Assembly: GCA_964570195.1 (NCBI GenBank)
Contig: CAZMWU010000001.1
Span: 7,433-71,432 of the forward strand
Direction: 5' to 3'
DNA from: an uncultured archaeon
GTDB lineage: Archaea > Aenigmatarchaeota > Aenigmatarchaeia > CG10238-14 > SCSR01
Length of the DNA stretch: 64,000 nt
Notes under the pieces: generated by a model
What the model was told of the DNA's origin: nothing
Database searches by the model: none
What the model saw: only the letters and a program-made list of their open reading frames with translations
Made by a program: the position numbers and the translations under genes
Shown: in pieces, positions 12 to 37,912 of the stretch
How the letters are laid out: each line of letters starts with the position of its first letter
Position numbering within the stretch: the first letter of the stretch is position 1

Positions 12-2444
12 ATGAAAATAATCATTAACGATCCGTCACGAGTGCCCGAAATTCGCGATATGTTGCAAAAAGAAAAACTCGTAGATGACGTCTACGAAGC
101 AGATATACTATTCAAATACAGATTCATGGCCGATAAAGGTATTTCTGGATTCAAGCGATTCAGGGTTTCTGGTACGCAAACCAGAACAAAGACAGTAAAA
201 ACCGATATTACCATGGATGTCAATGAGATACAAGAAATGGAGAGTTTAGAAAACAGCAATTTAAAATACGTATCGATAGATATAGAAACTATATCCAATG
301 AAGGAGCACCAGATCCAAAAAAGGACATAATCGGAATAATCAGCATGTCTTTTCACCCAGATTATAATTCAGAAAAATCCCTAATTTTGGTATCAAAACC
401 ATCCATAAAAAACAGTAAAGATGTTAAATTTTTTTCAAATGAGAAGGAAATGTTAAAGGAATTTCTCAAGATATTGGAAAATTACGATCCTGATGTCATT
501 ATAGGTTACAACATAAATAATTTTGACTTACCATACATACTTTCACGATTACGGGAGAATGATTTGTCAACTATGTTAGGACGGTGTAATCAGAAACCGT
601 CAATCTCAAGAAAAATCGGGGCGTACTATAAAAATACAATAACTGGCAGAATAATAGCCGATGCTTACGACCTCATTAAAGAGTCTATAAGAAAAGGGAA
701 TTTACGCTTAAAAAGACTTGGTCTCGGTGATGTTTCACGTGAACTATTAAACGATCAGAAGATTGACATAGCTCATAGCGAGATATTTGGTCATTGGCAT
801 GGTGACGATAGTCAATTAACAAAGCTGATTAGTTATGCAAAGAAAGATTCTGAGCTTGCTTTAAGACTGATATTGGAAAAAGGTTTACTCGACAAATTTT
901 TTGAACTAAGCAAGGTATCTGGGTTACTTTTACAAGATTGTTTAGATGGCGGTGAAGCACAAAGAGTGGAAAATCTCTTACTAAGAGAGTTTAATAAAAA
1001 CGACTACGTGTTACCATGCAAACCGTCTGAAAGTACATATGGAAAACAAGATAACCAAGAGTTAAAAGGTGCTCTTGTGTTAGAACCGAAAATAGGGCTC
1101 CACACAGATACGACAGTTTATCTTGACTTTAAATCAATGTACCCGTCAATCTTTATAGCGTATAACATTTGCCCAACCACACTTGTTAAAGACAAGTCAA
1201 ATGCAGTTGAAACTATTAAAACACCATATGGCACCGAATTTGTTTCTAAGAGTGTAAGAAAAGGGATACTTCCCACTATACTAATGTACCTAATTCAGGA
1301 ACGAGATAAAGTAAGATACGAAGAAAGACGAAGTTCCGATAAAAATGTAAAACGTTTGCTCGAAGCAAAACAACTCGCATTGAAAATCATGACTAACGCA
1401 TTCTATGGATATACAGGATATCTTAGAGCTAGGCTATACGTTATTGACATCGCAAATACTATAACTGGATGTGGTAGGTTTCTAATTAACCAAACTAGAG
1501 ATATCATAGAAACCAAATCCGAGTACGAAGTCGTCTACGGCGACACAGACTCTATAATGGTTAAAGTTAAAACCAAAGATCTCGACACAGCATATGAAAC
1601 CGGTAGAAAGTTAGAATCTCTGGTCAATTCCGAACTTACAGGAATTGTACAAATGAAGATAGAAAAAGTATTCAAAACCCTATTAATTCTTTCGAAAAAA
1701 CGTTATGTTGGATTAAGTTATGAAAAGTCAAATGGCAATTGGAAAGAAGAAATGGTAATGAAGGGCATAGAGACTGTACGGAGGGATTGGTGCGATGCCA
1801 CAACAAAAATATTATTTGAGGTTCTTAATATCTTACTAAAGGAACAGAATCCGAAAAAGGCATTTGGATATGTCAAAGAATATTTAATGAATCTTGAAAA
1901 AAATGAAGTTTCAATCGAGGATTTGATTATAACAAAAAGCATTTCTAAATCTATAGCGGCGTATAAAGGAATTCAACCTCATGTCGAACTTGTTAAGAAA
2001 CTAAGAAAAAGAAATGGTGAGGCACCAGGCGTAGGCGATAGAGTGAGTTTTGTAATAGTTAAAGGAATGCAACTTCTTTCAGAAAGAGCAGAGGATCCCG
2101 ACTATGTTAAAAAAAACAAATTACAAATAGATGATAAATATTATGTTGAAAACCAGATACTACCACCTTTAGAAAGGGTCTTTGAAGTCATCGGTATAAG
2201 TAAAACAGAATTGCTTGGAATAGGCAGACAAACTCTTCTGAAGGAGATTTTTAAAAACGGCAATAAAACAAACGGAACTGTTTTGAAAGAGAGTCTAGAC
2301 TCATTTGATGGATTTCTATGTAAAAAATGCAACAAATTCTATAGAAGAGTTCCTTTAATCAATCAGTGTTTTGAGTGTGGCGGAGAAATATTATTTTCCT
2401 CAGATAAAAAGATGGCTCATATTGTACAATTAAAGGGTCAATAG
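12..2444 (+). CDS. polB: Family-B DNA polymerase. It is possibly 5'-truncated by the window edge; there is no in-frame stop upstream of position 12.
   Basis: Exo motifs DIETIS and YNINNFDLPYI; polymerase motifs KxxxNAFYGYTGY and YGDTDS; C-terminal Cys4 zinc ribbon CKKCN...CFECGG. Confidence 0.9.
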   Translation: MKIIINDPSRVPEIRDMLQKEKLVDDVYEADILFKYRFMADKGISGFKRFRVSGTQTRTKTVKTDITMDVNEIQEMESLENSNLKYVSIDIETISNEGAPDPKKDIIGIISMSFHPDYNSEKSLILVSKPSIKNSKDVKFFSNEKEMLKEFLKILENYDPDVIIGYNINNFDLPYILSRLRENDLSTMLGRCNQKPSISRKIGAYYKNTITGRIIADAYDLIKESIRKGNLRLKRLGLGDVSRELLNDQKIDIAHSEIFGHWHGDDSQLTKLISYAKKDSELALRLILEKGLLDKFFELSKVSGLLLQDCLDGGEAQRVENLLLREFNKNDYVLPCKPSESTYGKQDNQELKGALVLEPKIGLHTDTTVYLDFKSMYPSIFIAYNICPTTLVKDKSNAVETIKTPYGTEFVSKSVRKGILPTILMYLIQERDKVRYEERRSSDKNVKRLLEAKQLALKIMTNAFYGYTGYLRARLYVIDIANTITGCGRFLINQTRDIIETKSEYEVVYGDTDSIMVKVKTKDLDTAYETGRKLESLVNSELTGIVQMKIEKVFKTLLILSKKRYVGLSYEKSNGNWKEEMVMKGIETVRRDWCDATTKILFEVLNILLKEQNPKKAFGYVKEYLMNLEKNEVSIEDLIITKSISKSIAAYKGIQPHVELVKKLRKRNGEAPGVGDRVSFVIVKGMQLLSERAEDPDYVKKNKLQIDDKYYVENQILPPLERVFEVIGISKTELLGIGRQTLLKEIFKNGNKTNGTVLKESLDSFDGFLCKKCNKFYRRVPLINQCFECGGEILFSSDKKMAHIVQLKGQ

Positions 2445-3524
2445 TGATTTTTCCCCTACTATTAATTTAGTAGTTTTTGGAACTCTCTCTTCAAGATTTA
2501 AAATTTTTACTTGGCGACCTATTAAGCTGTCTGATAACCGTTTATTGCAATCTATGTGTACATTATCAAATATAATACAATTTTCTATTTCACCGCTCTT
2601 TATTATCGTTCCATCACCAATTGATGTATAAGGGCCTATATAAACTCCCTTTTCGATTTCGCAGTTCTTACCTATTACTACAGGGCCTCTTATTGTAGCC
2701 CCGCTTCTGACTGTCGTTTTCTCGTCTATGAACACATTCCCTATTATATACGCACCGTCTTCTACTGTACCTAAAATATTTGGTTTTATGTCGTGTAATA
2801 TAAGTCGATTTGCCTCTAATAAATCATCTGGTGTACCAGTGTCTTTCCACCAATCATCAACAAATACATGTTTTACTTCATGCCCATCTTCAATCATCTT
2901 TTGCAAAGCGTCAGTAATTTCCAATTCATTTCTTGCAGATGGAGTTAACTTTTCTATCACGTTGAATATCTTTTCATTTAAAAAATAGATGCCAGTAATG
3001 ACTAAATTACTTTTAGGTTCGCTGGGTTTTTCAATAAGCCTTTTAATTTTATCACCATCGAGCTCTACAACACCATATAACCTAGGGTCTTTTACTTTTG
3101 TAAGATGTATTAAAGCATCGTAATTATGTTCCAAAAAAAGATTCAGAGAATTTTTGATACCACCTTTTAAAAAGTTGTCACCAAGGTACAATACGAACTT
3201 ATCACCAGCAATGAACTGTTTCGATATTTTAACTGCGTGTGCTATTCCCAAAGGTTCAGGTTGTTCTATATATGTTATGTTTATACCATATCTGGAACCG
3301 TCACCAAGCAATTCCTTTATTCCTTCTTTCACAGGTCCCAAGACAATTCCCACATCTTTTATACCAGCTTCAATGATGTCTTCAATAGCGTATAAAATCA
3401 TGGGCTTATTCCCTAAAGGTAATACATGCTTATTTGTAGTATATGTTAAAGGTCGTAATCTTGTTCCGTGACCACCAGCTAATAATAATGCTTTCATTGT
3501 ACCATGCTCTAACATGCTAATCAA
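2430..3524 (-). CDS. Sugar-1-phosphate nucleotidyltransferase (glucose-1-phosphate thymidylyltransferase-like) with a C-terminal left-handed beta-helix domain. The real start is probably the internal ATG giving MKALLLAGG, near 3497.
   Basis: Motif LAGGHGTRLRPLT (GxGTRLxPLT); C-terminal hexapeptide repeats (IGxxxxIxxxxxIG pattern). Confidence 0.85.
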   Translation of the reverse strand: MISMLEHGTMKALLLAGGHGTRLRPLTYTTNKHVLPLGNKPMILYAIEDIIEAGIKDVGIVLGPVKEGIKELLGDGSRYGINITYIEQPEPLGIAHAVKISKQFIAGDKFVLYLGDNFLKGGIKNSLNLFLEHNYDALIHLTKVKDPRLYGVVELDGDKIKRLIEKPSEPKSNLVITGIYFLNEKIFNVIEKLTPSARNELEITDALQKMIEDGHEVKHVFVDDWWKDTGTPDDLLEANRLILHDIKPNILGTVEDGAYIIGNVFIDEKTTVRSGATIRGPVVIGKNCEIEKGVYIGPYTSIGDGTIIKSGEIENCIIFDNVHIDCNKRLSDSLIGRQVKILNLEERVPKTTKLIVGEKSLLTL

Positions 3525-7376: not shown

Positions 7377-7401
7377 TTAACCTCAAGTATTACGTGATGT
7401 T

Positions 7402-11078: not shown

Positions 11079-11079
11079 T

Positions 11080-12075: not shown

Positions 12076-12182
12076 TTCAGATGCACGCTTATAAATAATT
12101 ATACAAAAAGTTTAAACACCTTTCTCAATACTAACGTTAATACATCTAGGAGATAGTTTTTACTTTCTAATTCTAGCAATCA

Positions 12183-12716: not shown

Positions 12717-12805
12717 AACATATTTAACAGACTCTTTTAAATTAATAGATATTTCTTAAACTTGTAGAAACGACAAAATATAAAGCATTTAACTGTTTCA
12801 TATAA

Positions 12806-13957: not shown

Positions 13958-13961
13958 AATT

Positions 13962-15593: not shown

Positions 15594-15657
15594 CTAGATC
15601 CCATGAGAATAGTATGAAAATAGATATAAATTAGTCTTCTATATTAATCTAACCAAA

Positions 15658-16593: not shown

Positions 16594-16599
16594 CATACA

Positions 16600-17295: not shown

Positions 17296-17302
17296 TTCAA
17301 TC

Positions 17303-18355: not shown

Positions 18356-18446
18356 CGTTCACTATCAAGACCTTATTTATTTAACTTTATAAATTTATTT
18401 TAATACTTTCTTAAGACAGATTTGATAATGTTTTTAATATAGCATT

Positions 18447-19985: not shown

Positions 19986-19988
19986 TTC

Positions 19989-21005
19989 TCATATGAAATG
20001 AAAATAAATAAGATAAAACCCGATGAGTGATACAACTATTTGCATTAAAATCAGAGTTAATGTGATTTGTTTCTCAGTCAACGTCTTTATGTTCATGATT
20101 AAATGTGTTATACTGTAGATTTTTTTACCATATGGTGCATAAAGTTTTCCATCCGATTTTAATAACCCTAAACTACTAGCTTTAAATTTGGATTTCATTT
20201 TTAAGAGAAATTCTACGATGAAAGGCGTAATTAGAATGATACCAAGTTTTTCCATATTACCCGCGATTACTCCACCAGCAACTAACGCCCCAAGAAGATA
20301 AGTTAATGAGTCACCTGGCAAGATTTTTGCTGGATACCAGTTGTATATTATAAACCCAATCAAAGATACAGCAGCAACTAAAAATAGAATAGCTATATTA
20401 CTTTGATTTAAAAAGGCAAAAATGCCAAGTGTCAGCATGTAAACTATTCCCATACCAGATTCCGATCCATTAAATCCCCCCAACATATTGATAGCATTGC
20501 TTGCGCCGATAAACCCAATAGGTATCAACAACAAGGGGTACAATATACCGAAATCAATGATTCCAAAAAATGGCAAATTTACTGTTGAATCACCTACGCT
20601 AATTACCATTAACGGTATGGCTGCAGGTAAAGTGAGCAGTGGTTTAAGCCATTGAGGAAGTCCAACACGAATATCTCTTTTTTTCGATTCGTATCGTATT
20701 ACATTCAAATCATCAAGCAGACCAATTAATGTGACTATCAGAACAGACGACATTATTGCAAATAAATACAAAATAGCGTTTGATATTCCCACCAAAAAAG
20801 TTGTTAAGCCGATGTAAGTTAAAAGACCTCCTAAAATACCAGAAGATACAGCTAACCCCCCAGAAGATGGTAATATTGGTTTATTTTTTTTATGTTGATC
20901 TATACCTACTACACCAGTTCTACGTAAAAATTTAATTAGGAATGGAATAGCAAAGAAGGTTGTAAAAAAGGAAACGATTAAAGAACTTAAAACAATTAAA
21001 TCCAT
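19989..21005 (-). CDS. UDP-HexNAc:dolichyl-phosphate HexNAc-1-phosphate transferase (MraY/WecA/AglH family).
   Basis: Polytopic protein with IGLLDDLNV (DDxxD) and NAINMLGGFNG motifs. Confidence 0.75.
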   Translation of the reverse strand: MDLIVLSSLIVSFFTTFFAIPFLIKFLRRTGVVGIDQHKKNKPILPSSGGLAVSSGILGGLLTYIGLTTFLVGISNAILYLFAIMSSVLIVTLIGLLDDLNVIRYESKKRDIRVGLPQWLKPLLTLPAAIPLMVISVGDSTVNLPFFGIIDFGILYPLLLIPIGFIGASNAINMLGGFNGSESGMGIVYMLTLGIFAFLNQSNIAILFLVAAVSLIGFIIYNWYPAKILPGDSLTYLLGALVAGGVIAGNMEKLGIILITPFIVEFLLKMKSKFKASSLGLLKSDGKLYAPYGKKIYSITHLIMNIKTLTEKQITLTLILMQIVVSLIGFYLIYFHFI

Positions 21006-21025: not shown

Positions 21026-22636
21026 TTATTGATTATTGTATATAACTTCATAAATTATATTACCGTCGCATCCGCCCTGTTGGATGCACTGTTCCAATGG
21101 AGGTCCATTCTCATAAACTTTTTTGAATATTTCTGGATTATTTTCTAAAAGTCTCACGAAATCAAATGAATAACTTTCTTGTGACGGTTGTTGACTCAGG
21201 CTGAATTTTTGAATAAAAAGATGTGTTATACCATGCATTTCCGACACGTCTCTTATAGATTCAGGATCATTGTTTAGTCGAATATCTGCCCATGCACTAC
21301 TTACGGTTCTTTGACAACTATACGCAGCTCTAGTACCCCAGAACGTCATTAATACAATATTCTCATCAAGATTTTCTTTCACCCAGTTACAAGACTCGAA
21401 AAATAAAGGAGAAAATGTCTTAACCTGTCCCATTACCGCTAACTTGTTAGTAATATTTTGGTAACCGAAAACCAATATTATCATTACAATAACTAAGCCC
21501 AAATATTTCTGATATTTTTGTAAAAGTGTATATAACTCACCCCAATACCGTGAACTTACAATAGCTATTATTGTTGCCCATGGAAGTAGTTGTCTTGCCG
21601 CATCTTCTGACCTTGACCTTATTTGGTACATTGCAATTAACCCAAGAATTAACATTACTATTAAAATCGGGGTAACCTTATCACGTTTCTTAATAAGTAT
21701 AATCAACCCACCAATAAGTCCTATAAGAATAAGCCATATGTTACCATATGTGAAAATTATAAAGTTCTGAAGTCCAAACCTTAGTAAGTCTAGTTCTGTG
21801 CCACCAGCTAAAGTTCTAGTTTCAAATTTATATTTTTCTTCAAAATTTCTGATTTCGCAACCACTTTCATCAAATAGAGGCAATTGTTGGCATTGGGGTG
21901 TCCCATAATAGTACAAATTTCTCAAAAAAAATGGCGCCGAAACAATTAAAACAATCGTACCATAGATTAGATAATTTTTAAGGCTATCACGAAATCTTTT
22001 TTCTTTGAATGAAGTATATAAAAACATTGCAGCTAAGAATGCAAAGATCATTATACCTGCATGTTTAGTTAATATTGCAAGACCAGCAAACAAAGCTGAT
22101 AGCACAAAATATTTTCTATTTTCCTCCTTTACAGCAATCGAAAAAGTTAAAATAAATAGACTAATATAAAGTACGAATAACATTTCATCGAAAGACAAGA
22201 CAGAATATGTTATGAAAGAAGGGAAAGTAATTAATAAAAGAGTTGCAATTAACCCAACTTCCCGATTAAATAATTTTTTTGCCGTTAAAAATACAGAAAT
22301 TCCAATTAAAGAGGCTATAAATGGTGGAAATAGTTTGAAAATAATTTCATGTGTTCCCAGAACGAAAAGGAACCCTGCCTCTAAAATATTAAACAATGGT
22401 GGTCTGGCGTAGTGTGCTTTGTAAACTTTTGTAACTCCGAATGGAACCCACTGAGGATATTCTACATTTCCAGCTATGTACCTAGCTATTTCAGCGTGAA
22501 AACCCTCATCACCAAAAGTTATATTCGTTTTAAGAGAAACATTAGCCTCCAGAATAAAAAGCAATCCGATTAAAATCAACAATAACAAAAACAAATATTG
22601 CGAGGTTAGTCCAATTTTCGTTTTATCACCCATCAA
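21026..22636 (-). CDS. GT-C-fold glycosyltransferase (GT39/ArnT/PMT-like, dolichyl-phosphate-sugar dependent).
   Basis: 536 aa; N-terminal TM helix followed by a loop containing DEGFHAE (a DE-type motif); about 11 TM helices and a C-terminal soluble domain. Confidence 0.55.
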   Translation of the reverse strand: MMGDKTKIGLTSQYLFLLLLILIGLLFILEANVSLKTNITFGDEGFHAEIARYIAGNVEYPQWVPFGVTKVYKAHYARPPLFNILEAGFLFVLGTHEIIFKLFPPFIASLIGISVFLTAKKLFNREVGLIATLLLITFPSFITYSVLSFDEMLFVLYISLFILTFSIAVKEENRKYFVLSALFAGLAILTKHAGIMIFAFLAAMFLYTSFKEKRFRDSLKNYLIYGTIVLIVSAPFFLRNLYYYGTPQCQQLPLFDESGCEIRNFEEKYKFETRTLAGGTELDLLRFGLQNFIIFTYGNIWLILIGLIGGLIILIKKRDKVTPILIVMLILGLIAMYQIRSRSEDAARQLLPWATIIAIVSSRYWGELYTLLQKYQKYLGLVIVMIILVFGYQNITNKLAVMGQVKTFSPLFFESCNWVKENLDENIVLMTFWGTRAAYSCQRTVSSAWADIRLNNDPESIRDVSEMHGITHLFIQKFSLSQQPSQESYSFDFVRLLENNPEIFKKVYENGPPLEQCIQQGGCDGNIIYEVIYNNQ

Positions 22637-23601
22637 GTTATCCCTAATATTCTTTCTTGATGCTTTATGACTTTTTCTAGACCTTCTTTTAACGAGATTT
22701 TTTGTCTCCAGCCCATATTTGTTAAGCGACTTATGTCGGAATAGCGAGTCATTACACCAAAGGGTTTATCTTGTAAAGTTCTAATTTCTGGGTTATATCC
22801 TTTAATTTCACACATTATTTTAGCAGCCTCAATGAAAGAAGTCGGTTTACTAGAACCTATGTTTACGGCTGAACCGTCAGTAATAGTATCAATGACCAGC
22901 ATCATAGCATCTATAACATCAGATATATACACAAAGTCTCTCTTTTGATTTCCCGGACCCCATATAATTAATGGGTCTTCTTTCTTAACAACTCTTTGAG
23001 CGATTGCTGGTATAGGATAACTCGCATCTTGATCATGACCATATCCTGAAAATGGTCTAATAATAGATACATCTAAATTATAGTGCTTGACAAGTAACTT
23101 GCACAGATACTCACCTGTCAGCTTGCTCCACCCATAAGTCATATCGGGCATCTTTAAGTTATCGAAATCTATATGATTTTCCTTAAGATTCAAATAGTCT
23201 TTTTCACCCTGTAATTTTATTGGATATGCAGCACTTGAACTGGCATAAAGAAACTTCCCGACCTTTTCTTTATTTTCTGCTACCCAATTGAGAAAAATAG
23301 AGTCAATCGCTAGATCTGTCGCAACCTTTATAGGATTACCCTCTATAAGTGATCTGCCTCCAACAATAGAAGCCAAGTGAAACACGTATTTGAAAGATGG
23401 GAAATCTGGATTACCTTTGAAAAGTTTTATAACATCTTCATTTATAAACTGGTAATTGTTCCCAGTAAGCCACTCATCCGGGAATTTTCCTACTGACAGA
23501 TCGTCAACTATGTAGACAAAAAAGCCCCTTTCTATAAGCCTGTTAACTAGGTGTCTACCTACAAAGCCACATCCTCCAGTTACTAGTACATTTTCAGTCA
23601 T
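22633..23601 (-). CDS. NAD-dependent sugar epimerase/dehydratase (extended SDR).
   Basis: VLVTGGCGFVGRHL motif; YGWSK catalytic Yx3K. Confidence 0.8.
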   Translation of the reverse strand: MTENVLVTGGCGFVGRHLVNRLIERGFFVYIVDDLSVGKFPDEWLTGNNYQFINEDVIKLFKGNPDFPSFKYVFHLASIVGGRSLIEGNPIKVATDLAIDSIFLNWVAENKEKVGKFLYASSSAAYPIKLQGEKDYLNLKENHIDFDNLKMPDMTYGWSKLTGEYLCKLLVKHYNLDVSIIRPFSGYGHDQDASYPIPAIAQRVVKKEDPLIIWGPGNQKRDFVYISDVIDAMMLVIDTITDGSAVNIGSSKPTSFIEAAKIMCEIKGYNPEIRTLQDKPFGVMTRYSDISRLTNMGWRQKISLKEGLEKVIKHQERILGIT

Positions 23602-23732
23602 ATAGCACTTGTATGAATACTTTATATTAATATTTAAATTTTCACTTCTTTCTCATATATTCACAAATAGGAGTTAGAGAGGCTCCCGTAACAAAAACAA
23701 CGCTTATGCAACATTAGAAAAGTCAAATTATT

Positions 23733-24986
23733 TTGAAATTTAAATCTGTTACTATTACTATAACTTATACTATGAAATGTCAAGTATGCTCAAGTGAGAA
23801 CTTATACAATGTCTTAGATTTGGGGCATCAACCACCAAGTGACGATTTTTTGACAGAAGAGAGATTAAACGAAGAGGAAGTTTTTTATCCATTAAAAGTA
23901 ATTTATTGCGAAGATTGTAAACTCGTCCAACTTAACTATGAAATTGACCCAAATGTTGTTTTTAGAGAAAACTATGTTTACATGTCGTCTTCAAACAAAA
24001 TTTTTATTCAGCACGCACATTCCCTAGTAGATAGGTTAGTACATGAATTCAAGCTAACTGAAAATGATTTTGTAATAGATATAGGATCCAATGACGGTAC
24101 TTTACTCGAGGCGTATAACCCATATAAAATAAAAATTCTTGGTACAGATCCGTCAAGTGTAGCCAAAGTGGCAATTGGAAAGGGTATTCCTACAATAAAC
24201 GCATTCTTCAATGAGGAACTAGCAGAAACAATTATTAAAGAACATGGTAAAGCAAAGATTATTACTGGTCTAAATGTTTTCGCACATGTAAAGGAATTAA
24301 AATCATTACTTAATGGAGTTAATGTGCTTTTAGAAGATTCAGGAACTTTTATAACAGAATCTCATTACCTTTTGGACATGATTGAGAAACTACAATATGA
24401 TGAAATATACCATGAACACTTGAGGTACTATTCCATAGAATCACTTATTAATTTGTTCAAGCGATTTAACATGGACGTATTTCATGCCGAGCGTACTAAT
24501 AATCAGGGCGGATCAATAATTGTATTCGCTTGCAAAAAAGGTCAAAAAAATATATCAGATTCTGTTTCGTCAATTCTTGAAGTTGAAAAAGATTACAATT
24601 TAAATTCTCATAAAACTTTCGACAACTTTAGAGAAAGAGTCAATGAAATTAAAATGAAACTGCGTAACATGTTGTATGAAATCAAAGCGAATGGTAATAT
24701 CATAGTAGGGATTGGAGCACCTGCAAAAGGCACAACTTTATTGAATTTCTGTAAAATCGATTCAAATATCCTTGACTATTTAGTGGAGACCAACCAATTT
24801 AAAGTTGGTAAATATTCACCAGGTATGCATATCAAAATCCTAGATGAGTCCACCTTAATAAAAGACCAACCTGAATATGCGTTAATGTTACCATGGAATA
24901 TTAAGGACAATATAATACCTAAATTACGCGAGAAAGGTTATATCGGAAAAATAATTATACCAAATCCCGAACCTACTATTGAGTAA
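23733..24986 (+). CDS. Sugar C-methyltransferase family protein. It has an N-terminal Zn ribbon, a class I SAM methyltransferase domain and a C-methyltransferase C-terminal domain.
   Basis: CQVCSSENLY...CEDC zinc-binding N-terminus; VIDIGSNDG motif I; about 415 aa, typical of the TylC3/NovU-type family. Confidence 0.65.
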   Translation: MKFKSVTITITYTMKCQVCSSENLYNVLDLGHQPPSDDFLTEERLNEEEVFYPLKVIYCEDCKLVQLNYEIDPNVVFRENYVYMSSSNKIFIQHAHSLVDRLVHEFKLTENDFVIDIGSNDGTLLEAYNPYKIKILGTDPSSVAKVAIGKGIPTINAFFNEELAETIIKEHGKAKIITGLNVFAHVKELKSLLNGVNVLLEDSGTFITESHYLLDMIEKLQYDEIYHEHLRYYSIESLINLFKRFNMDVFHAERTNNQGGSIIVFACKKGQKNISDSVSSILEVEKDYNLNSHKTFDNFRERVNEIKMKLRNMLYEIKANGNIIVGIGAPAKGTTLLNFCKIDSNILDYLVETNQFKVGKYSPGMHIKILDESTLIKDQPEYALMLPWNIKDNIIPKLREKGYIGKIIIPNPEPTIE

Positions 24987-24990
24987 AACT

Positions 24991-25806
24991 TTATAATGTT
25001 TTTTTATAAGCAATCCAATATAGCTTATCTATATTTTCTATTTCATAATTATACTTTTCAAGTATAGCTTCGCACTTTTTAACATGTTCTTCATCCCACG
25101 CCTCAAAAATTATTTTTGCATTACCCTCCTTTAAAACATTTTCCATCCCTTCCAATACCTGAGGTTCAGCACCCTCCACATCAATTTTAATAAAATCAAA
25201 GTTCTTTATCTTTAGTTCTTCTGCTATATTATCTACAGTATCGGCGTTAACTTTTATGTAGTTGTTTGAGACTTTAACAGAAGATGCTAGAACAGGTTGA
25301 TTTTCATGTGAAAAGAGTTTTAATGGTTCTTTTTTATTCCAGGCTGCGACTTTGATCGGAATAACATTTTCACACTTATTGAGTTTCATATTTTTAATTA
25401 AAATGTCAAAATTTTTGGGATGTGGTTCAATTGAGACTACCATGCCTTCTTTCCTGATTTGATTACTTATCATAACAGTATACTTTCCTACATTTGCACC
25501 TATGTCTAAAAACATTCCTTTATTGATTGATTTGAAGTATTTTCTTAGATTGGATTCAAATCGTTCCGAAATTATATCCAAGTTAACATTATCCTTACAA
25601 AAGAAAAGTCCGTCTGAGTTTTTAACAATAAATCCAGAAAAGAACAAACTAGGATGCACTATTAATTTTTTTGCAATAATGAAACTTACACGATTTATAG
25701 GATATAATAGTAAGAATAAAAAATTATGTAAAAATATCTTTACCTTGTCTTTTAGCATATAGCCATCTTTAAAGCGTGTAATAAAAATATAAAATCGTTT
25801 TAACAT
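24991..25806 (-). CDS. FkbM-family methyltransferase.
   Basis: FLDIGANVGKYT motif. Confidence 0.65.
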   Translation of the reverse strand: MLKRFYIFITRFKDGYMLKDKVKIFLHNFLFLLLYPINRVSFIIAKKLIVHPSLFFSGFIVKNSDGLFFCKDNVNLDIISERFESNLRKYFKSINKGMFLDIGANVGKYTVMISNQIRKEGMVVSIEPHPKNFDILIKNMKLNKCENVIPIKVAAWNKKEPLKLFSHENQPVLASSVKVSNNYIKVNADTVDNIAEELKIKNFDFIKIDVEGAEPQVLEGMENVLKEGNAKIIFEAWDEEHVKKCEAILEKYNYEIENIDKLYWIAYKKTL

Positions 25807-25810
25807 TCTA

Positions 25811-26548
25811 TCACTCAGGTCTATCGATTGAGGTTATTTCACCATTTTTAACTGATACACTACCACCATTCGGTACATTTAATTTCCCTGTCAAAATATC
25901 TCTCACAATATTAGCAATAACTTCAGGTGATTGTTGACTTTCAGCATCATTAAAAAGTTCATCTCTCATCCGTGTGTTCACACCAGCAGGACATATTGAA
26001 ACACAAGATACGTTGGTATTTAATTCCTTTACCTCTTTTCCAATGGCTGCAGTCAAACCCTGTAATGCAAATTTACTTGCAGAATAAATAGGCAGTATAG
26101 GATTGCTTTTTTTACCTGCACCTGAAGACATGTTTATAATTATCCCGCTGTCTTGCTTTTTCATTACAGGCAGAATTTCCCTGACAAAATAAAATATAGA
26201 ATCGACATTGGTTTTGAAAATATTTTCATATTCCTCGTCTGTCACATCTTCAATGTATTTTGTCTTGTTCGTCCAACCGGCACTATTTACTAGTATATCT
26301 ATCCTACCATATGTGGTTATAATATCATCTAAAAATTTCTCTATCTGTTTCTTTTCTTTTACATCAACCACATAATATTCGCATTTACCATTATCGGATA
26401 TAATCGCTTTACAGACACCCTTCAAATTGTCTTCGTTCCGAGCACATATAATAACCTGAGCACCTTCCTTAGCCAATACTTCCGCTATGGATTTGCCAAT
26501 ACCTGTGCTACCTCCTGTTATTATAGCGATTTTTTGCTCTAGTTTCAT
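25811..26548 (-). CDS. Short-chain dehydrogenase/reductase (SDR).
   Basis: TGGSTGIGKS cofactor motif; YSASK catalytic motif. Confidence 0.85.
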   Translation of the reverse strand: MKLEQKIAIITGGSTGIGKSIAEVLAKEGAQVIICARNEDNLKGVCKAIISDNGKCEYYVVDVKEKKQIEKFLDDIITTYGRIDILVNSAGWTNKTKYIEDVTDEEYENIFKTNVDSIFYFVREILPVMKKQDSGIIINMSSGAGKKSNPILPIYSASKFALQGLTAAIGKEVKELNTNVSCVSICPAGVNTRMRDELFNDAESQQSPEVIANIVRDILTGKLNVPNGGSVSVKNGEITSIDRPE

Positions 26549-26608
26549 GTAAATCTACAATTACTATATAAATATAAAATTAATTGTTACAATAATTAGA
26601 GGCATTAC

Positions 26609-26992
26609 ATGTATAAAACAACAAAAATTTCACCAGTCTTTACCGATGAAAGAGGTACTATTAGTGATATACTTGAAACCACAATAAATCATATAGGTCT
26701 GATAACTTCGAAAAAAGGATCTATTAGAGGTAAACATTACCATAAAAAATCTACACAATACATCTTTGTTATTAGCGGAAAATTAGAGTCTTTTACAAAA
26801 GATATGAATGTAGAAAATTCGAAGGTAGAATCACATATACTGGTTCCAGGTGATTTGGAAACAGTATCGCCAATGTTAGCTCACGCCCATAAGGCGCTTG
26901 AAGATTCAGTTTTTCTTAACTTCACTACAGAATCACGAAAAGAGAGTGGTTATGAAGACGATACAATTAGAGTAGAGATGAATTTAGAATGA
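26609..26992 (+). CDS. Small cupin-fold protein (FdtA/WxcM-like sugar 3,4-ketoisomerase or RmlC-like epimerase candidate).
   Basis: 127 aa; GKHYHKK...YIFVISG cupin motif; ATGA-coupled to the downstream epimerase/dehydratase. Confidence 0.4.
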   Translation: MYKTTKISPVFTDERGTISDILETTINHIGLITSKKGSIRGKHYHKKSTQYIFVISGKLESFTKDMNVENSKVESHILVPGDLETVSPMLAHAHKALEDSVFLNFTTESRKESGYEDDTIRVEMNLE

Positions 26993-27924
26993 ACTGGGAA
27001 GGTAAAAAAGTAGTTGTAACCGGCGGCGCTGGGTTTGTAGGTTCTCATCTGGCTGAGAAGTTAGTTAATTTAGGGGCCGATGTGACGATAGCAGATATGA
27101 TAGCTAAATCAACCACTATTAACCTTGAGGAGATTAAGAACAGAATAAAAATAGTCGATATAGATATATCAAAAAAAGATGATTTTAATAAACTTGAAAA
27201 TGATCAAGACTATTTATTTCATTTGGGAGCCGTTAGTCAACCTCGTACATGTCAAGAAAACCCTGAACTAGCCTTTAATGTTAACGTTGTAGGAACCTTA
27301 AACACATTAAACTTCGCCACAAAAAGTAATGTTAAAAAATTCATTTTTTCTTCTTCTGTACTTCTTTATGGAACACCAAAATATCTCCCGATAGACGAGA
27401 ACCATCCTTTGGATTTGTCGAATAATTTTTATAGCTTGACCAAAAAAATAGGAGAAGACCTTTGCGACTATTATAGTACTGTAAAGAACTTACCGGCAAT
27501 TTATTTAAGATTTTCTAATATGTTCGGTCCCAAACAAGCTTCAGACTATATAATACCAACCATAATTATTCAAGCTATCAAGGATAAAAAGATAGAGGTT
27601 TGGAACGATCAATTTGTAAGAGATTTTACATTCATTTCAGATACGATAGACGCACTTATCACATCTGTGGAAAGTGACTTTATAGGAGGTCCTGTCAACA
27701 TAAGTTCTGGTAGCAAGATAAAGATAGCTGAAGTAGCTACTAATATAGCCGGTTATACGAACGCCACAATAAGTTCATTAAATAAAAGCCTATCTTCACC
27801 TCTAATTTTACATTGTGCTAATGATTTGGCGAAAAAGACATTAGGATGGTCTCCAAATGTGTCTTTCGAAGAAGGTTTGAAAGCAACCTTTGATTGGTAT
27901 AAAAATAATTTGCACAGATTTTAA
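26989..27924 (+). CDS. NAD-dependent sugar epimerase/dehydratase (extended SDR).
   Basis: VVVTGGAGFVGSHL motif; YSLTK Yx3K. Confidence 0.8.
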   Translation: MNWEGKKVVVTGGAGFVGSHLAEKLVNLGADVTIADMIAKSTTINLEEIKNRIKIVDIDISKKDDFNKLENDQDYLFHLGAVSQPRTCQENPELAFNVNVVGTLNTLNFATKSNVKKFIFSSSVLLYGTPKYLPIDENHPLDLSNNFYSLTKKIGEDLCDYYSTVKNLPAIYLRFSNMFGPKQASDYIIPTIIIQAIKDKKIEVWNDQFVRDFTFISDTIDALITSVESDFIGGPVNISSGSKIKIAEVATNIAGYTNATISSLNKSLSSPLILHCANDLAKKTLGWSPNVSFEEGLKATFDWYKNNLHRF

Positions 27925-27953: not shown

Positions 27954-29066
27954 TCATAATTTCGAGTCTGGTATTGTGGAATGATTATAGGTTCTGGCAA
28001 CGTCTTCGTACACCCTTAAATGATGTTCTGCCACAGCTTTCCAATTCGCTAATTCTCTAAATTTATTTATTCCAGGAATATACGAATGATAGTTTTTAAA
28101 TATCTCTTTTATACCCTCAGCTATTTGTTCAGGGTTTTTGGTCTCAACTACAACACCACAGTTGAATTCTTCTACCGTTTCACTTATAGGTCCGGTTCTT
28201 GTAACAACTACAGGTATCCTGTATGCGAATGCTTCATTCAATGCTGCAGATTGGTATGGTGCCCATAGATAAGGTAGAACGACAATATCCGCTTTCCTAT
28301 ATAACTCGGACTTTTCCTCTTCGGTTATCCAACCAAACTCAAGTGTAATGTTCTTCAAGTCGTTTTTTCTAATTTCATTCTCAAGCATCCTTACATATGA
28401 TGGATTTATTACTAGTCCTTTTATGAAGAGTTTAAAATCTGGAAGCAACTTCATTGCCTTTATCAAATATTCCAATCCCTTTTCTGGAGCTATTGCACCT
28501 TGAAATAGTATGTTTTTACCCCCTTGTTTTTCAATATCAACAGGGTTCAGTCCATAATAAATCCATTCAGCATCAATCCCACTCTTTAATAAGATCTTTC
28601 TATGAGCCTTGGCGTATACAATTATCTTAGTAGCCCTTTTAATCACCATTTTTTCGAACCATTTAACTATGATGTCTTTAATATTTCTGGATGATGTGTG
28701 CAATTCATTTAACGTCACAACTACAGGGATACCGAGATTTAGTGCATTTATGAGTCTCATGTTCGCAATCAAAGTTTTGAAATATGCAAGAGGTTTGAAT
28801 ATACTTTTTTGATCCAAATGTCTACCACTAGCTATATATTGGACGTGTAAGACATCTATGTTTTCTTTTTTTATTATACCAGCAATATCTTTCATGAAAT
28901 TCTTCGTTAATGCGACTTTGTAATTGCATTCCGAATTTCCTAAACCAATTTTTACTATTTCACATTTTCCTTTCAGATTTTCTGTAATATTTTCTAAAAA
29001 AAGTACAATCCCTCCTTGTTCTGGCGGAAATCTGCCAAAAAAACCCACTTTAATCATATTTTTCAC
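27954..29066 (-). CDS. GT4-family glycosyltransferase.
   Basis: 370 aa GT-B fold with an ExxxxxxxE-type C-terminal region. Confidence 0.65.
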   Translation of the reverse strand: MKNMIKVGFFGRFPPEQGGIVLFLENITENLKGKCEIVKIGLGNSECNYKVALTKNFMKDIAGIIKKENIDVLHVQYIASGRHLDQKSIFKPLAYFKTLIANMRLINALNLGIPVVVTLNELHTSSRNIKDIIVKWFEKMVIKRATKIIVYAKAHRKILLKSGIDAEWIYYGLNPVDIEKQGGKNILFQGAIAPEKGLEYLIKAMKLLPDFKLFIKGLVINPSYVRMLENEIRKNDLKNITLEFGWITEEEKSELYRKADIVVLPYLWAPYQSAALNEAFAYRIPVVVTRTGPISETVEEFNCGVVVETKNPEQIAEGIKEIFKNYHSYIPGINKFRELANWKAVAEHHLRVYEDVARTYNHSTIPDSKL

Positions 29067-29092: not shown

Positions 29093-29971
29093 TTATTTCT
29101 CCTCATCGAGAAAATGTTTATAATAATCCTTTTTAGTGCTTCTTATAATTTCACAATCTATCAAGGCCTTCTCCAAAACAGCCTTCATACCATTTTCAAT
29201 GAAAAGAGGATCAAAGTCATTTAAATAACAATACGCTACAAACATTTCTCTCGCAAAGAAATTATTAAACCATGCGTGTATAGTCGATGAAATTAATTTG
29301 TTTATAGCAATCTTCTTATCCAACTTTTCCACACCAGTTCCCCATTCTAGGAAATATGTTTTCTCAAGATTGGCAGTCTTTTCTACTTTCAACATTTTTG
29401 ATAAATCAATTCTCAAATTTGGATCGACGTACAGATAAAGTGGCGGCAATTTAGAAATGATGTATTTTGCAAATAGTTTTGCTTTGTTCATCGGAGATAG
29501 TCTTAGATTTTCGACATTTTTTGAATGAAAATAGATACCAGCCTTTTCTGGAAAAGAAAATATACGGCCGTTTTTTGCTAAAATTACTGTATCATCCCCC
29601 AAAACGCCGAAATTTCTTCTAGCCAAACCGAATACTGTCGACGATTTTCCCATTTCAGACCAAGCAGATATCAAAAATCCTTTACCGTTTTTCGTTATGC
29701 CACCAGAATGTATTAATGTGCAACCCTTTTCCAAAAGTTTAATTTCAAGAAGAATGTCTATTATTACAGCTATGCCGAAAAAACTTCGTGTGAATTTTGT
29801 GAAATAAAATTTCGTCTTCTTCTTTTTCAAATCCTTAATCAAAATTTTTTGCACTGATCTGCCGTAAGCTGTGTAGTCAAGAAATAATGTGTCATTTCCC
29901 CCCCGAAATTTCAGACCCAGCTTGTCGTACTTGTCTTCATCAAAATCGATATCGGTTTCTCTTATTTCCAA
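29093..29971 (-). CDS. HPr-kinase C-terminal-domain-like P-loop protein (hypothetical kinase/phosphotransferase). TTG start; the open frame continues about 120 nt upstream without ATG or GTG.
   Basis: LIHSGGITKNGKGFLISAWSEMGKSST matches the HprK-type P-loop region (H-x-S/A...GxSGxGKS). Confidence 0.4.
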   Translation of the reverse strand: MEIRETDIDFDEDKYDKLGLKFRGGNDTLFLDYTAYGRSVQKILIKDLKKKKTKFYFTKFTRSFFGIAVIIDILLEIKLLEKGCTLIHSGGITKNGKGFLISAWSEMGKSSTVFGLARRNFGVLGDDTVILAKNGRIFSFPEKAGIYFHSKNVENLRLSPMNKAKLFAKYIISKLPPLYLYVDPNLRIDLSKMLKVEKTANLEKTYFLEWGTGVEKLDKKIAINKLISSTIHAWFNNFFAREMFVAYCYLNDFDPLFIENGMKAVLEKALIDCEIIRSTKKDYYKHFLDEEK

Positions 29972-31174: not shown

Positions 31175-31187
31175 TCTATTAATTATT

Positions 31188-32895: not shown

Positions 32896-32899
32896 TTTA

Positions 32900-34003: not shown

Positions 34004-34007
34004 AATT

Positions 34008-34928: not shown

Positions 34929-35044
34929 ATCGATAGTAGCTCTACTAAATTTTATAAATCAATCAGATAGAATATTGTAAAACTCTATAATTTGTTAGTA
35001 TATAAATCTTTCTGCTTTAATAAAAATGTAACCAAACTGATACT

Positions 35045-35773: not shown

Positions 35774-37912
35774 ATGTTAGAGAATTACAACAATTTGAAA
35801 AGTGTACTTCCCACGATTATCAAAACTATATTAATATTACTGGGTCTAGCTTCTATAATTTTTCTAGGAGTTTATATAAGAAGTAGTACCCTTAGCTCAC
35901 CAACTGTTTTAGATTATGATCCTTGGTATTTTTATCGATATGCAGAAGATATTGTTGAGAATGGATATAAACTATTTAAATGGGACGGATTGACTTACTA
36001 TCCACCAGGACGCCCTACAGATATTTACTTAGGATGGTCTTATACAATTGCAATTTTTTATAAAATATTACATTCAATTTTTGATAACATAACTCTAATG
36101 CAAGTAGCTAAATTAGCACCATTAATAATGGTAGGTATAACACCTGTATTTGCCTTCTTATTAGGTAGATTACTTTCAAACTCCTTAGGAGGGTTATTAA
36201 CAGCTTTATTTTCTGTGATTGCACCCACTTTCATAGGTGTATCTATGGCAGGTTATTCAGATTCTGATGTTGTTACAGTCTTTTACATGATTTTATCCAC
36301 ATTAACGATAATTGCAACAATAAGATACTCAAAAAATATACTGCTCTCAATACCCCTTTACTTTTTATCCGTCATTAGCGTTTTGTTATTTACTTTTAGT
36401 TGGAGTGCAGGTTGGCTACCTTTAATTTTGTTCATGGCATTTATACCTTCATTCATAACCTTCAGGATTTTTGAAGAAGTGATTCATCAAAGAAAATTAA
36501 AAATCAACATTAAAAGTGCACTGGCAGATACGAAACATGTGATAATTCCTCTTCTTATCATATTTCTGATAACAAACATTGTAGGATATTATCTCGGTTT
36601 TAGAACAATGTTCCACTCTTTACTAGGTGGATTAGCATTCGCTGGAATAGGTGGAGAAAGATTAATAGTCAACATTTCTGTTGCAGAACTCCAGACAGTC
36701 AATGTATTCACCAAAGAAGGGTTCCTGGCCATTGCACAACGTGTTGGTATGCTGTCTACAATAATGGCGCTTATAGGGATACCATTATTAGCGATTTATA
36801 AACTTTTTAGAAAGGAAAAAATCAATTTCGTTGAGATATTTTTATTTTTATGGACACTAGTCTCGTTTTACTTTATAATCAAAGGCATAAGGTTCTCACT
36901 ACTGTTCTCCATTTCTGCTTCACTTTCTACGGGTTATGTAATTGGTAATTTATATAACTACCTTAGGCATGTAAATATTTTGATATTTTCTACAATATTT
37001 GCAGTATTGGGCGTTTTTATTTTCGTAGCAATATCGAATTCAATACAAGTTGGATTTGCATCTGGCGGATTGGTAATAGGTCAAAATTGGTATGATGCAT
37101 TAGATTGGCTTAAACAAAATGCTGATAAAGATTCTTTGGTTGCAACGTGGTGGGATCCAGGTCATATCATTACAGGTTATACAGGATTAAAAGTTCACGC
37201 AGATGGGGCGCATTGTGGTGATGCATGTATACCATACAATCATAACACAAGGATAAGAGATATGGGTAGACTGATGACAACAGACAACGAAACAGAATCT
37301 ATAGAAATAATCCAAAAATATACACATTTGACTGATGAACAATGTGATACAATAAGAAAAACGTTTGGAGATATAGTTCCAAAAGACGCGTGTAAAGACG
37401 TCACAGAAACATATATTTTGGCAACCAGCGATTTGATAGGTAAATATTTCTGGATGAGTTGCTTTGGTAGTTTTGATATGAACTTATGGAAAGAAACTAA
37501 AGGTGACGAATGGAGATGCGATGGAAAAAATTTTGCTCAAGTACCGTTTTCTAATTTCGATCGACAAGGTTTACCGATATATTCGCAAGGTGGTCTTACG
37601 ATTACGCTGCTTCAGAACGGTACCGATTTATTAGCTGTACTCAATGCACCTGGGCAAGGCGTCCGTAATAGAGTAGTAAGTGACATAGTGTTTTATCAAA
37701 ATGGTCAGAGAATGCACTCCAAATCCTACTTTAATAATTCGGTAGATGGTATGGTCTGGATAGACCCAAGCTTTAGACTAATTTTATTCATGGATCCTAC
37801 AATAAGGGATTCTGTATTTACTAAAATGTTCTTTTTTGACGGTGAAGGTCTAGAAAACTTTGAGCTTATGTACCAGAACACAGAAGTCAAAATATATAAA
37901 GCGAAAATTTAG
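35774..37912 (+). CDS. aglB: AglB/STT3 oligosaccharyltransferase.
   Basis: 712 aa; N-terminal multi-TM domain with DxD-type loops; C-terminal soluble domain with WWDPGH, a variant of the WWDYG signature. Confidence 0.8.
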   Translation: MLENYNNLKSVLPTIIKTILILLGLASIIFLGVYIRSSTLSSPTVLDYDPWYFYRYAEDIVENGYKLFKWDGLTYYPPGRPTDIYLGWSYTIAIFYKILHSIFDNITLMQVAKLAPLIMVGITPVFAFLLGRLLSNSLGGLLTALFSVIAPTFIGVSMAGYSDSDVVTVFYMILSTLTIIATIRYSKNILLSIPLYFLSVISVLLFTFSWSAGWLPLILFMAFIPSFITFRIFEEVIHQRKLKINIKSALADTKHVIIPLLIIFLITNIVGYYLGFRTMFHSLLGGLAFAGIGGERLIVNISVAELQTVNVFTKEGFLAIAQRVGMLSTIMALIGIPLLAIYKLFRKEKINFVEIFLFLWTLVSFYFIIKGIRFSLLFSISASLSTGYVIGNLYNYLRHVNILIFSTIFAVLGVFIFVAISNSIQVGFASGGLVIGQNWYDALDWLKQNADKDSLVATWWDPGHIITGYTGLKVHADGAHCGDACIPYNHNTRIRDMGRLMTTDNETESIEIIQKYTHLTDEQCDTIRKTFGDIVPKDACKDVTETYILATSDLIGKYFWMSCFGSFDMNLWKETKGDEWRCDGKNFAQVPFSNFDRQGLPIYSQGGLTITLLQNGTDLLAVLNAPGQGVRNRVVSDIVFYQNGQRMHSKSYFNNSVDGMVWIDPSFRLILFMDPTIRDSVFTKMFFFDGEGLENFELMYQNTEVKIYKAKI

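Follow-up and report, generated by a model that had tools for sequence, protein, structure and literature searches.

A conserved five-gene cassette, probably for a C-methyl-branched nucleotide sugar, in an N-glycosylation island of a DPANN archaeon

C-methyl-branched sugars in described systems

To our knowledge, C-methyl-branched sugars have been chemically documented so far only in bacterial antibiotics, lipopolysaccharide (LPS) and S-layers. The closest described enzymes to the one considered here are the C-3 methyltransferases of actinomycetes, which include MtmC (mithramycin, D-mycarose), TcaB9 (tetronitrose), KijD1 (kijanose) and enzymes of the TylC3/EryBIII type. A homologous sugar C-methyltransferase (C-MT) is encoded, within a cassette of five genes, in a 64-kb stretch of DNA from an uncultured archaeon (contig CAZMWU010000001.1, assembly GCA_964570195.1), and this whole stretch is referred to below as the window. 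The window C-MT shares with the actinomycete enzymes their three-domain architecture, zinc site and catalytic residues. It differs from them in being archaeal, in its location within an N-glycosylation island rather than an antibiotic cluster, and in being 32-35% identical to them in sequence. Its partners differ as well: in place of the EvaA-E or TylX3-C1-K-C2 set, the window C-MT is accompanied by a mini-cupin with a metal site, a member of a clade of extended short-chain dehydrogenases/reductases (SDRe), a classical short-chain dehydrogenase/reductase (SDR) and an FkbM methyltransferase, with no dehydratase nearby.

Three other systems resemble parts of the archaeal cassette. In the virenose (6-deoxy-3-C-methyl-gulose) LPS pathway of Coxiella burnetii, a sugar C-MT (CBU_0691, which is TylCIII-like) serves a cell-surface glycan and not an antibiotic, as is proposed here. 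The virenose pathway is an in silico prediction only and has an uncertain 4-ketoreductase (PMC3539893). In contrast to the archaeal locus, it is bacterial, has GMD and RmlB candidates in the genome, and is not described as including a cupin fusion or an SDRe of the kind termed ORF6 below. The second system is CapF/WbjC of the Staphylococcus aureus capsule, an SDR reductase fused to a Zn-cupin, in which a metal-site cupin and an SDR act one after the other on a 4-keto nucleotide sugar. The CapF cupin is a C-3 epimerase that acts on a UDP-4-keto sugar. The window cupin matches the C-terminal domain of Cap5F (profile E 1e-7) as well as CapF structures, but the window cupin and SDRe are separate genes in the opposite order with ~20% identity to CapF, and the SDRe, ORF6a, is a full-length GalE/WbmF-like protein that does not correspond to the SDR domain of CapF. 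The third is Mth375 (PDB 6PMH/6PNL), a WbmF-type SDRe from Methanothermobacter and the closest solved relative of ORF6a (6PMH, E 1e-39). Mth375 shares with ORF6a an archaeal origin, a location in a glycan gene cluster and a Ser-Tyr-Lys triad that lacks the dehydratase motif. Its authors assigned it neither a substrate nor a reaction (PMC12820599), and transfer of a function from Mth375 to ORF6a was rejected for this reason.

The cassette and its conservation

Six clustered genes had been singled out in a reading of the window made from the sequence alone (the sequence-only reading), and a check of the open reading frames together with Pfam and NCBIfam searches confirmed both the positions and the domain families of all six. 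The grouping goes beyond chance for five of the six, which recur together in related genomes, while the gene designated ORF1 falls outside the conserved set. The cassette genes are as follows (family scores are given with their cutoffs).

23772..24986 (reading frame open from 23733), plus strand: nucleoside diphosphate (NDP)-sugar C-methyltransferase (C-MT), the core enzyme; Zn-ribbon, class I S-adenosylmethionine (SAM) domain and Methyltransf_14 C-terminal domain
24991..25806, minus strand: FkbM-family SAM methyltransferase; PF05050 79.7 vs 22.7, TIGR01444 107.4 vs 37.7; orthologs 56% (L001) and 55% (L090) identical
25811..26548, minus strand: classical SDR; adh_short 190 bits; orthologs 55% (L001) and 52% (L090) identical
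26609..26992, plus strand: 127-aa cupin; PF14667 30.5 vs 28.7, FdtA PF05523 20.1 vs 23, dTDP_sugar_isom (RmlC) PF00908 19.2 vs 27
26989..27924, plus strand: extended SDR ORF6a (ORF6); Epimerase 150.6 bits; GGAGFVG; motif SSSVLLYG / YSLTK

Genes that border the cassette or may act with it are the following.

2430..3524, minus strand: RmlA-long, a long-form glucose-1-phosphate thymidylyltransferase; TIGR01208 442.5 vs 320.25, model positions 1-353 of 353
22633..23601, minus strand: extended SDR ORF1; Epimerase 119 bits; GGCGFVG; motif SSSAAYP / YGWSK; GalE/UXS-like without the acid/base pair
27954..29066, minus strand: GT1-family glycosyltransferase; Glycos_transf_1 100.6 bits; 48% (L001) and 71% (L090) identical, adjoining the cassette in both
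29093..29971, minus strand: HprK-like P-loop protein, 292 aa; weak matches to HprK_C and HprK-related kinase B
35774..37912, plus strand: AglB/STT3 oligosaccharyltransferase, which closes the island; STT3 90.3 bits; orthologs 65% (L001) and 70% (L090) identical, downstream of the cassette

The five cassette genes probably form a functional unit for a C-methyl-branched nucleotide sugar that would feed the N-glycosylation island of AglB, since they recur in two other genomes of the Aenigmarchaeota type and since the C-MT and cupin are fused in a number of homologs. The first of these genomes is the Aenigmarchaeota metagenome-assembled genome (MAG) GCA_016181005.1 (locus L001, which is identical with L005). 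Its order of genes (flippase, GT4, PMT_2, C-MT, FkbM, SDR, cupin, SDRe, GT1, HprK-like, GT1, AglB, histone, RPA, RadA) corresponds to that of the window in every gene, with identities of 36-74%; the five cassette genes are 55-74% identical and keep their order. The second locus, L090, has the same C-MT, FkbM, SDR, cupin, SDRe, GT1, HprK-like and AglB genes in a rearranged order and orientation. Identity in L090 is 52-74% for the five cassette genes and 74% for the C-MT itself, and for the cassette together with GT1, HprK-like and AglB it ranges from 48 to 74% across L001 and L090. Retention of the set through the rearrangement in L090 speaks for selection on the gene set. The HprK-like protein is 68% identical in L001 (15274-16248) and 62% identical in L090 (6373-7353), and its gene lies beside the GT1 gene of the cassette in all three genomes.

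Fusions link two of the cassette proteins directly. Several of the closest homologs of the C-MT are proteins of 538-565 aa with a C-terminal cupin, and the fused cupin domain of two of them (P0021 and P0015) is 41-43% identical to the free-standing cupin of the window. Further C-MT-cupin fusions occur in L014 and L052. Within the window, the stop codon of the cupin gene and the start codon of ORF6a overlap by 4 nt, and the SDR gene ends 4 nt upstream of FkbM.

The host is a DPANN archaeon of the Aenigmarchaeota kind, as judged from the MAGs of Aenigmarchaeota in which the C-MT, cupin and ORF6 have their closest homologs.

The C-methyltransferase

The true start of the C-MT is most likely the ATG at 23772 and not the TTG at 23733, as homologs measure 403-406 aa and open with MKCQ. 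The three domains are matched in Pfam, PF08421 (Methyltransf_13) scoring 79.6 vs 31.3, PF08484 (Methyltransf_14) 155.6 vs 23.5 and PF13489 (Methyltransf_23) 57.3 bits. Matches in the PDB to MtmC (4rv9, E 7e-80, 35% identity), KijD1 (1e-64, 32%) and TcaB9 (1.5e-62, 32%) run end-to-end, the alignment with MtmC spanning residues 2-403 of 404, and all PDB matches with E <= 0.001, which comprise 10 distinct sequences, are sugar 3-C-methyltransferases.

An alignment of 31 C-MT homologs has C3, C6, C46, C49, H172, Y213, E215 and H216 as invariant residues. The zinc site C3/C6/C46/C49 lines up with the Cys pairs of TcaB9 and MtmC. The window protein also keeps the residues aligned to Tyr76, Asn177, His181 and the Tyr222-x-Glu224-His225 cluster of TcaB9. 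Its IYHEHL segment aligns with IYDEHF of TcaB9, and the TcaB9 mutant in entry 4e2y departs from the wild type exactly at the Glu that the window C-MT retains.

In a neighbour-joining tree of 96 sequences, MtmC, KijD1 and TcaB9 nest within the environmental C-MT family, and the window C-MT falls in a tight archaeal clade with those of L005, L090, L003, L091, L092 and L006. The tree is midpoint-rooted and carries no support values, so it speaks for the coherence of the family and not for the exact branching order. By family, the protein can be regarded as a true sugar C-MT, predicted to methylate an NDP-4-keto sugar in a SAM-dependent manner. Its earlier identification as a Zn-ribbon sugar C-methyltransferase is upheld by family assignment, PDB matches, zinc and catalytic residues and the tree alike. 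The same reading had asked whether the protein might group with non-sugar methyltransferases; by PDB matches and by the tree it groups with sugar C-MTs.

The cupin

The 127-aa cupin scores just above the cutoff for PF14667, a model that also matches its relatives and the cupin part of the C-MT-cupin fusions, and below those for the FdtA and RmlC families. An AlphaFold (AF2) model built on 30 homologs has a predicted local distance difference test score (pLDDT) of 95.5. The top Foldseek matches of this model are the RmlC homolog 1wlt, the 3,4-ketoisomerases FdtD, FdtA and QdtA, StrM, RmlC and the CapF cupin, with a probability of 1.00 and query-normalised TM-scores of 0.65-0.78 to 1wlt, 4zu4, 2pa7, 4o9e, 7pwh, 1pm7 and 2zkl. 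The best structural matches all act on NDP-4-keto sugars, and for the ketoisomerases the TM-score is ~0.70-0.78 in both directions.

The invariant residues of this cupin family are H43, H45, H92, Y115-E116-x-D118, D13, R15 and R40. The H-x-H of H43-Y-H45 is placed as His49/His51 of FdtA, and H43 aligns with the His of RGLHYQ (the catalytic His of RmlC) in the RmlC homolog of S. tokodaii. Enzymes of the FdtA/QdtA/FdtD and RmlC types are not known to depend on a metal. The window cupin differs from them in that a third invariant His completes a classic metal-binding triad, H43, H45 and H92 aligning with the Mn ligands of oxalate decarboxylase. That the cupin is simply an ortholog of RmlC or of FdtA was considered and rejected, given the sub-threshold scores and a three-His metal site that speaks for a different sub-type. 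The residues H43/H45/H92/Y115 fit more than one mechanism among the RmlC, FdtA and CapF types. Judged from its modelled structure and these residues, the cupin may be a metal-assisted epimerase or ketoisomerase that works next to the keto group of an NDP-sugar, by the same enolate/enediolate chemistry as the C-MT.

Keto reduction and tailoring

ORF6a has the Ser-Tyr-Lys triad without the dehydratase acid/base pair, and would be a 4-ketoreductase (or an epimerase) that works with the cupin. Its orthologs, L001_313 (66% identity) and L090_310 (59%), are both cupin-adjacent. The ORF6 family comprises two paralogous subclades, ORF6a and ORF6b. While ORF6a is always coupled to the cupin (in the window, L001 and L090), ORF6b immediately precedes the C-MT in L090 and is part of an RmlA-ORF6b-C-MT operon in L003, L091 and L092. 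These last three loci have in addition an SDRe that is 86-87% conserved among them (L003 11914-12879, L091 11718-12659, L092 12347-13315), in which KALAK replaces YxxxK and the catalytic Tyr is missing.

An Arg after strand beta-2 of an SDR is a signature of NADP(H) binding, while an Asp at this position is the NAD signature. The classical SDR has the Arg (IICARN) and is thus likely an NADPH-dependent ketoreductase. Keto reduction is assigned to ORF6a and/or the classical SDR because the succession of cupin and ORF6a recalls the union of an SDR with a cupin domain in CapF. A gene with an adh_short domain is also adjacent to the C-MT of L006. The FkbM protein would O-methylate the sugar or the glycan; a search of the PDB with FkbM gave no informative relative, the single match being to an unrelated tRNA-methyltransferase-like protein. 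The GT1 protein is a candidate for the transferase of the branched sugar, and AglB is the likely final user of the glycan.

The source of the keto sugar

A C-MT of this family requires a keto group beside the carbon that it methylates, and the sequence-only reading had taken its seven genes together as the kit for an NDP-4-keto-6-deoxy sugar. That claim fails, as neither SDRe is a 4,6-dehydratase and none is encoded elsewhere in the window. ORF1 and ORF6 both have a GxxGxxG NAD site and a Ser-Tyr-Lys triad. At the position where dehydratases and decarboxylases have T-D-E, x-S-E or x-D-K, however, ORF6 has S-V-L and ORF1 has S-A-A, compared with T-D-E in the RmlB of L001. The two SDRe score 94 and 122 bits with NCBIfam dehydratase models, vs a cutoff of 365 bits. 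Either protein as the 4,6-dehydratase was rejected on these active-site motifs and sub-threshold scores. A tblastn search of the window with the RmlB of L001 (STDEVYG) found ORF1 and ORF6 alone, at 24-27% identity, and a six-frame motif scan of all 64 kb found no dehydratase-type motif. The window also lacks the GFO reductase seen in L001, and a complete dTDP-mycarose-type pathway is not encoded in it.

Relatives with the same or a similar C-MT offer a more complete picture. At 288-5772 of L001, ~4-9 kb upstream of the cassette, are an RmlC-like gene, RmlB (STDEVYG), GT2, GFO, a short (253-aa) gene of the 2,3-dehydratase family and RmlA. Together with C-MT, epimerase and reductase, this gene set would provide the full logic of a mycarose-type pathway to a 2,6-dideoxy-3-C-methyl sugar. 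In L006, whose C-MT is 60% identical, the C-MT is paired with an NTP-transferase and an SDRe of the dehydratase type (SSDKAYG). The simplest reading of this comparison is that the organism of the window would encode its 4,6-dehydratase elsewhere in the genome.

The thymidylyltransferase-like gene that the sequence-only reading had added to the set from a distance is indeed of that family, scoring above the equivalog cutoff, and has homologs in the same islands of relatives. RmlA-long lies 19 kb from the cassette and is a candidate for the sugar-activating enzyme; in L001, L003, L091 and L092, orthologs (49-51%) are separated from the C-MT by 1 to 4 kb. Because RmlA-long also exceeds the cutoff for an archaeal GlmU-like subfamily (298.6 vs 292.1), its specificity for nucleotide and sugar is not certain.

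Proposed pathway and alternatives

It seems somewhat better than an even chance that the cassette and GT1 together make a C-methyl-branched nucleotide sugar, probably also O-methylated, for a lipid-linked glycan that AglB transfers to surface proteins. By its family membership, RmlA-long would activate the sugar-1-phosphate. The NDP-4-keto sugar would then come from an enzyme outside the window, most likely a canonical 4,6-dehydratase encoded elsewhere in the genome, as in L001. The C-MT would deprotonate the carbon beside the keto group and methylate it from SAM, with C-3 the likeliest position by analogy with MtmC, TcaB9 and KijD1. The metal-site cupin may next epimerise or isomerise the product through the same enolate/enediolate chemistry, after which the translationally coupled ORF6a and/or the NADP-type classical SDR would reduce the keto group in a CapF-like manner. 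FkbM would add the O-methyl group, and the conserved GT1 would transfer the sugar. ORF1 would stand outside this pathway.

Several observations weigh against this pathway. The 64 kb contain no homolog of a 4,6-dehydratase, 2,3-dehydratase or RmlC though the island looks complete, and L003, L091 and L092 have no recognisable dehydratase within 10 kb of their RmlA-ORF6b-C-MT operons. The usual partner of the C-MT family in the wider survey described below is a UXS-like SDRe and not a 4,6-dehydratase. The cassette is divided among three transcription units. Strand beta-2 of ORF6a ends in Asp, the NAD rather than the NADP signature, so that a redox-neutral epimerase fits as well as a reductase. 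In the literature searched, neither a C-methyl sugar in archaeal glycans nor an archaeal sugar C-MT is reported, and the roles given to the archaeal C-MT clade are putative functions based on sequence.

The dehydratase-free arrangement of L003, L091 and L092 is the point of departure for an alternative that we consider unlikely, in which no 6-deoxygenation takes place. An SDRe of the ORF6 family (or ORF1) would oxidise C-4 of an NDP-hexose and release the 4-keto sugar, which would be C-methylated, epimerised by the cupin and reduced again to give a C-methyl-branched hexose that is not a deoxy sugar. The operon of RmlA-long, ORF6b and C-MT in these three genomes suits such a route, as does the missing catalytic Tyr in their second SDRe. 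None of the SDRe enzymes of the window island has the acid/base pair, and the Asp typical of NAD binding is present in both ORF1 and ORF6. A sequence of C4-dehydrogenase, cupin epimerase and C4-reductase exists in Campylobacter heptose pathways, and PDB entries related to those pathways appeared among the structure matches. On the other hand, of the two paralogs the window encodes ORF6a, which is coupled to the cupin, and not ORF6b; L001 has RmlB with the same cassette, and L006 has its D-K type dehydratase beside the C-MT. Moreover, the ORF6 family has no characterised member, its closest structure being Mth375. A dehydratase-free route in which ORF6a and ORF6b supply and then re-reduce a plain 4-keto hexose, with the metal-dependent mini-cupin as partner of the C-MT, is considered an outside chance. 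Were it true, an archaeal N-glycan would for the first time be shown to contain a branched-chain sugar, and the way in which it is made would be new to any organism.

A further alternative, to which we give slightly less credence still, is that the genes are mere neighbours in a hypervariable glycosylation island, the C-MT being an orphan or an inactive remnant and the others tailoring different sugars. The genes lie in four transcription units of alternating orientation, the keto-forming step is absent from the window, and the island has insertions relative to L001 (ORF1 and 30.1-35.8 kb) as well as a segment of low GC content. Against this reading, the five genes stay together in three genomes despite rearrangement, C-MT-cupin fusions exist, the reading frames are all intact and the catalytic residues are conserved.

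If the prediction of a C-methyl-branched sugar is right, such sugars are present on the surface glycans of DPANN archaea. The range of chemistry known from archaeal glycans would then be broader, and C-MT, cupin, SDRe, SDR and FkbM would make up a concrete gene set for testing. The cassette represents a conserved five-gene pathway of a known kind in an unusual host, and its description is an incremental annotation and not a new principle. Nothing relevant to nucleotide-sugar pathways of DPANN archaea was found in the literature searched.

The wider C-methyltransferase family and a pentose route

Two peptide patterns alone place the C-MT family in at least 597 species-representative genomes of bacteria and archaea, and a protein search gave at least 7,986 clusters at E <= 1e-10. 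The view in the sequence-only reading that such sugars are unusual in archaea stands for characterised glycans; it does not stand for the genes, which are common in DPANN metagenomes. A census of neighbouring genes was taken at 80 sampled C-MT loci with single-sequence seeds. The motif classes of SDRe in this census are robust, and counts outside these classes (e.g., cupins, short nucleotidyltransferases and 2,3-dehydratases) are lower bounds. The dominant neighbour is an SDRe with the x-S-E motif; 66 of the 80 loci have one, and at 62 it lies no more than 3 kb from the C-MT. GFO oxidoreductases were found at at least 32 loci and DegT aminotransferases at at least 25, and dehydratases with T-D-[EK] at 11.

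One of the x-S-E enzymes scores 201 bits to human UDP-glucuronate decarboxylase (UXS1) vs ~90 to RmlB. In L039 and L042 the x-S-E SDRe is fused to the C-MT, with a mini-cupin encoded just upstream. Woesearchaeota, Nanoarchaeia and bacteria of the candidate phyla radiation (CPR) have a module that unites mini-cupin and C-MT with a UXS-like SDRe (SSSE[IV]YG / YDESK), sometimes as a C-MT-SDRe or C-MT-cupin fusion. The loci with the UXS-like module are the following.

L039 2999-5287
L042 9962-12268
L014 5872-7554
L052 9974-11881
L055, L036, L071 and L079

The module may represent an uncharacterised pathway to a C-methyl pentose. In a context that is common in bacteria, exemplified by a Chitinophaga pinensis MAG (L040 4656-11206), the C-MT comes last, after NUDIX, UDP-glucose dehydrogenase, GFO, GT2, methyltransferase and SDRe (SSSEVYQ) genes in this order, an Arn-like arrangement. 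Logic of the Arn kind is suggestive of a route to a C-methyl pentose, and we know of no such route that has been characterised. Members of the family are as a rule accompanied by a UXS-like SDRe and a mini-cupin, in some cases as fusion proteins, and the survey points in this way to a branched-sugar route of CPR bacteria and DPANN archaea that has yet to be studied.

For the window itself, such a route seems improbable. It would start from a 4-keto-pentose derived from UDP-glucuronate and proceed as in the Arn pathway (UDP-glucose dehydrogenase, oxidative decarboxylase, tailoring, transfer to polyprenyl phosphate by GT2, and a PMT_2/ArnT-like GT-C enzyme) to a C-methyl pentose. The frequency of the x-S-E SDRe beside related C-MTs, its resemblance to UXS1, its fusions to the C-MT and the Chitinophaga module all speak for it, and the window does have a gene like that for UDP-glucose dehydrogenase, a GT2 gene and two PMT_2 genes. 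The window has no x-S-E SDRe, however, and its dehydrogenase-like protein lacks the C-terminal UDP-binding domain and is encoded with the WbpB/D/E-like set described below. In the tree, the C-MT clade of the window also stands apart from the clades associated with UXS, and genes of the RmlA/RmlB type are found in its nearest relatives.

ORF1

The sequence-only reading had counted ORF1 as a member of the branched-sugar set, from which it is here removed. ORF1 probably serves a different nucleotide-sugar branch, as judged from its coupling to PMT_2, its absence from the syntenic loci and the setting of its homologs. Its stop codon overlaps the start codon of PMT_2 by 4 nt, giving a unit of ORF1, PMT_2 and GT4, and the syntenic loci in L001 and L090 hold no ortholog. 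Homologs (50-71%) are located in L087, L088 and L089, all without any C-MT, where they adjoin an RGP-family gene and GT2 (L087, L088) and have PMT_2 or an AftD-like GT-C gene nearby (L087, L089). The window holds the same pair of GT2 and RGP at 16.6-18.4 kb (16600-18355). The position after strand beta-2 of ORF1 is an Asp, as in NAD-dependent enzymes. A reasonable guess is that ORF1 is a UDP-pentose 4-epimerase that feeds a route of the arabinofuranose type, and SDRe of the ORF1 type beside RGP (UDP-arabinopyranose-mutase-like) and GT2 hint at a pathway to a furanose or pentose lipid-linked donor in DPANN archaea and CPR bacteria.

That the seven genes nonetheless form a self-sufficient kit, one 'epimerase/dehydratase' being the NDP-hexose 4,6-dehydratase, is very improbable: both SDRe match the Epimerase and GDP_Man_Dehyd families of Pfam and, below threshold, a dTDP-glucose 4,6-dehydratase model, but the NCBIfam scores fall far short of the cutoff, the acid/base pair is lacking after the catalytic Ser/Thr, and ORF1 is not conserved with the cassette and keeps other company elsewhere.

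The glycosylation island

The cassette is held in a 36-kb glycosylation island that is bordered on one side by a gene for a family-B DNA polymerase (12-2444) and on the other by RPA and RadA (38.4-40.4 kb). The other contents of the island are Alg13/Alg14-like genes, a WbpB/D/E-like set, genes of the sulfatase family, GT1, GT2, GT4 and PMT_2 genes, a flippase and AglB. The GC content of the window is ~26-42%. From 10001 to 20000 it is 26-29%, compared with 32-42% elsewhere in the window, and this segment coincides with the most variable part of the island.

The branched sugar had also been described as possibly aminated, for which there is no support specific to the cassette: one DegT aminotransferase of the island belongs to the WbpB/D/E-like set (4.6-7.4 kb) and the other to the insertion at 30.1-35.8 kb. 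Four genes in a row at 4663-8307 encode a GFO oxidoreductase, a hexapeptide acetyltransferase, a DegT aminotransferase and a protein like UDP-sugar 6-dehydrogenase. They make up a set of the WbpB/WbpD/WbpE/WbpA kind, as used for 2,3-diacetamido uronic acid, and account for one aminotransferase independently of the C-MT cassette. The last protein of the row (7402-8307), which is UDP-glucose/GDP-mannose dehydrogenase-like, has 301 aa and no C-terminal UDP-binding domain. It is not a local truncation, since the same 301-aa form is encoded in the locus of a relative (L087 3082-3987).

The second aminotransferase gene lies in a block at 30173-35773 with GFO, methyltransferase, GT1, a 306-aa reading frame without a Pfam match and a second methyltransferase. 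The block is absent as such from the syntenic loci L001 and L090, its sole ortholog being the GT1 (59%) in L090. The block has the appearance of an insertion specific to the strain, with a 3-amino sugar as its probable product. A split Alg13-like/Alg14-like gene pair (3687-4594) adjoins RmlA at the island's left edge; enzymes of this kind have been discussed as archaeal synthases of a chitobiose core.

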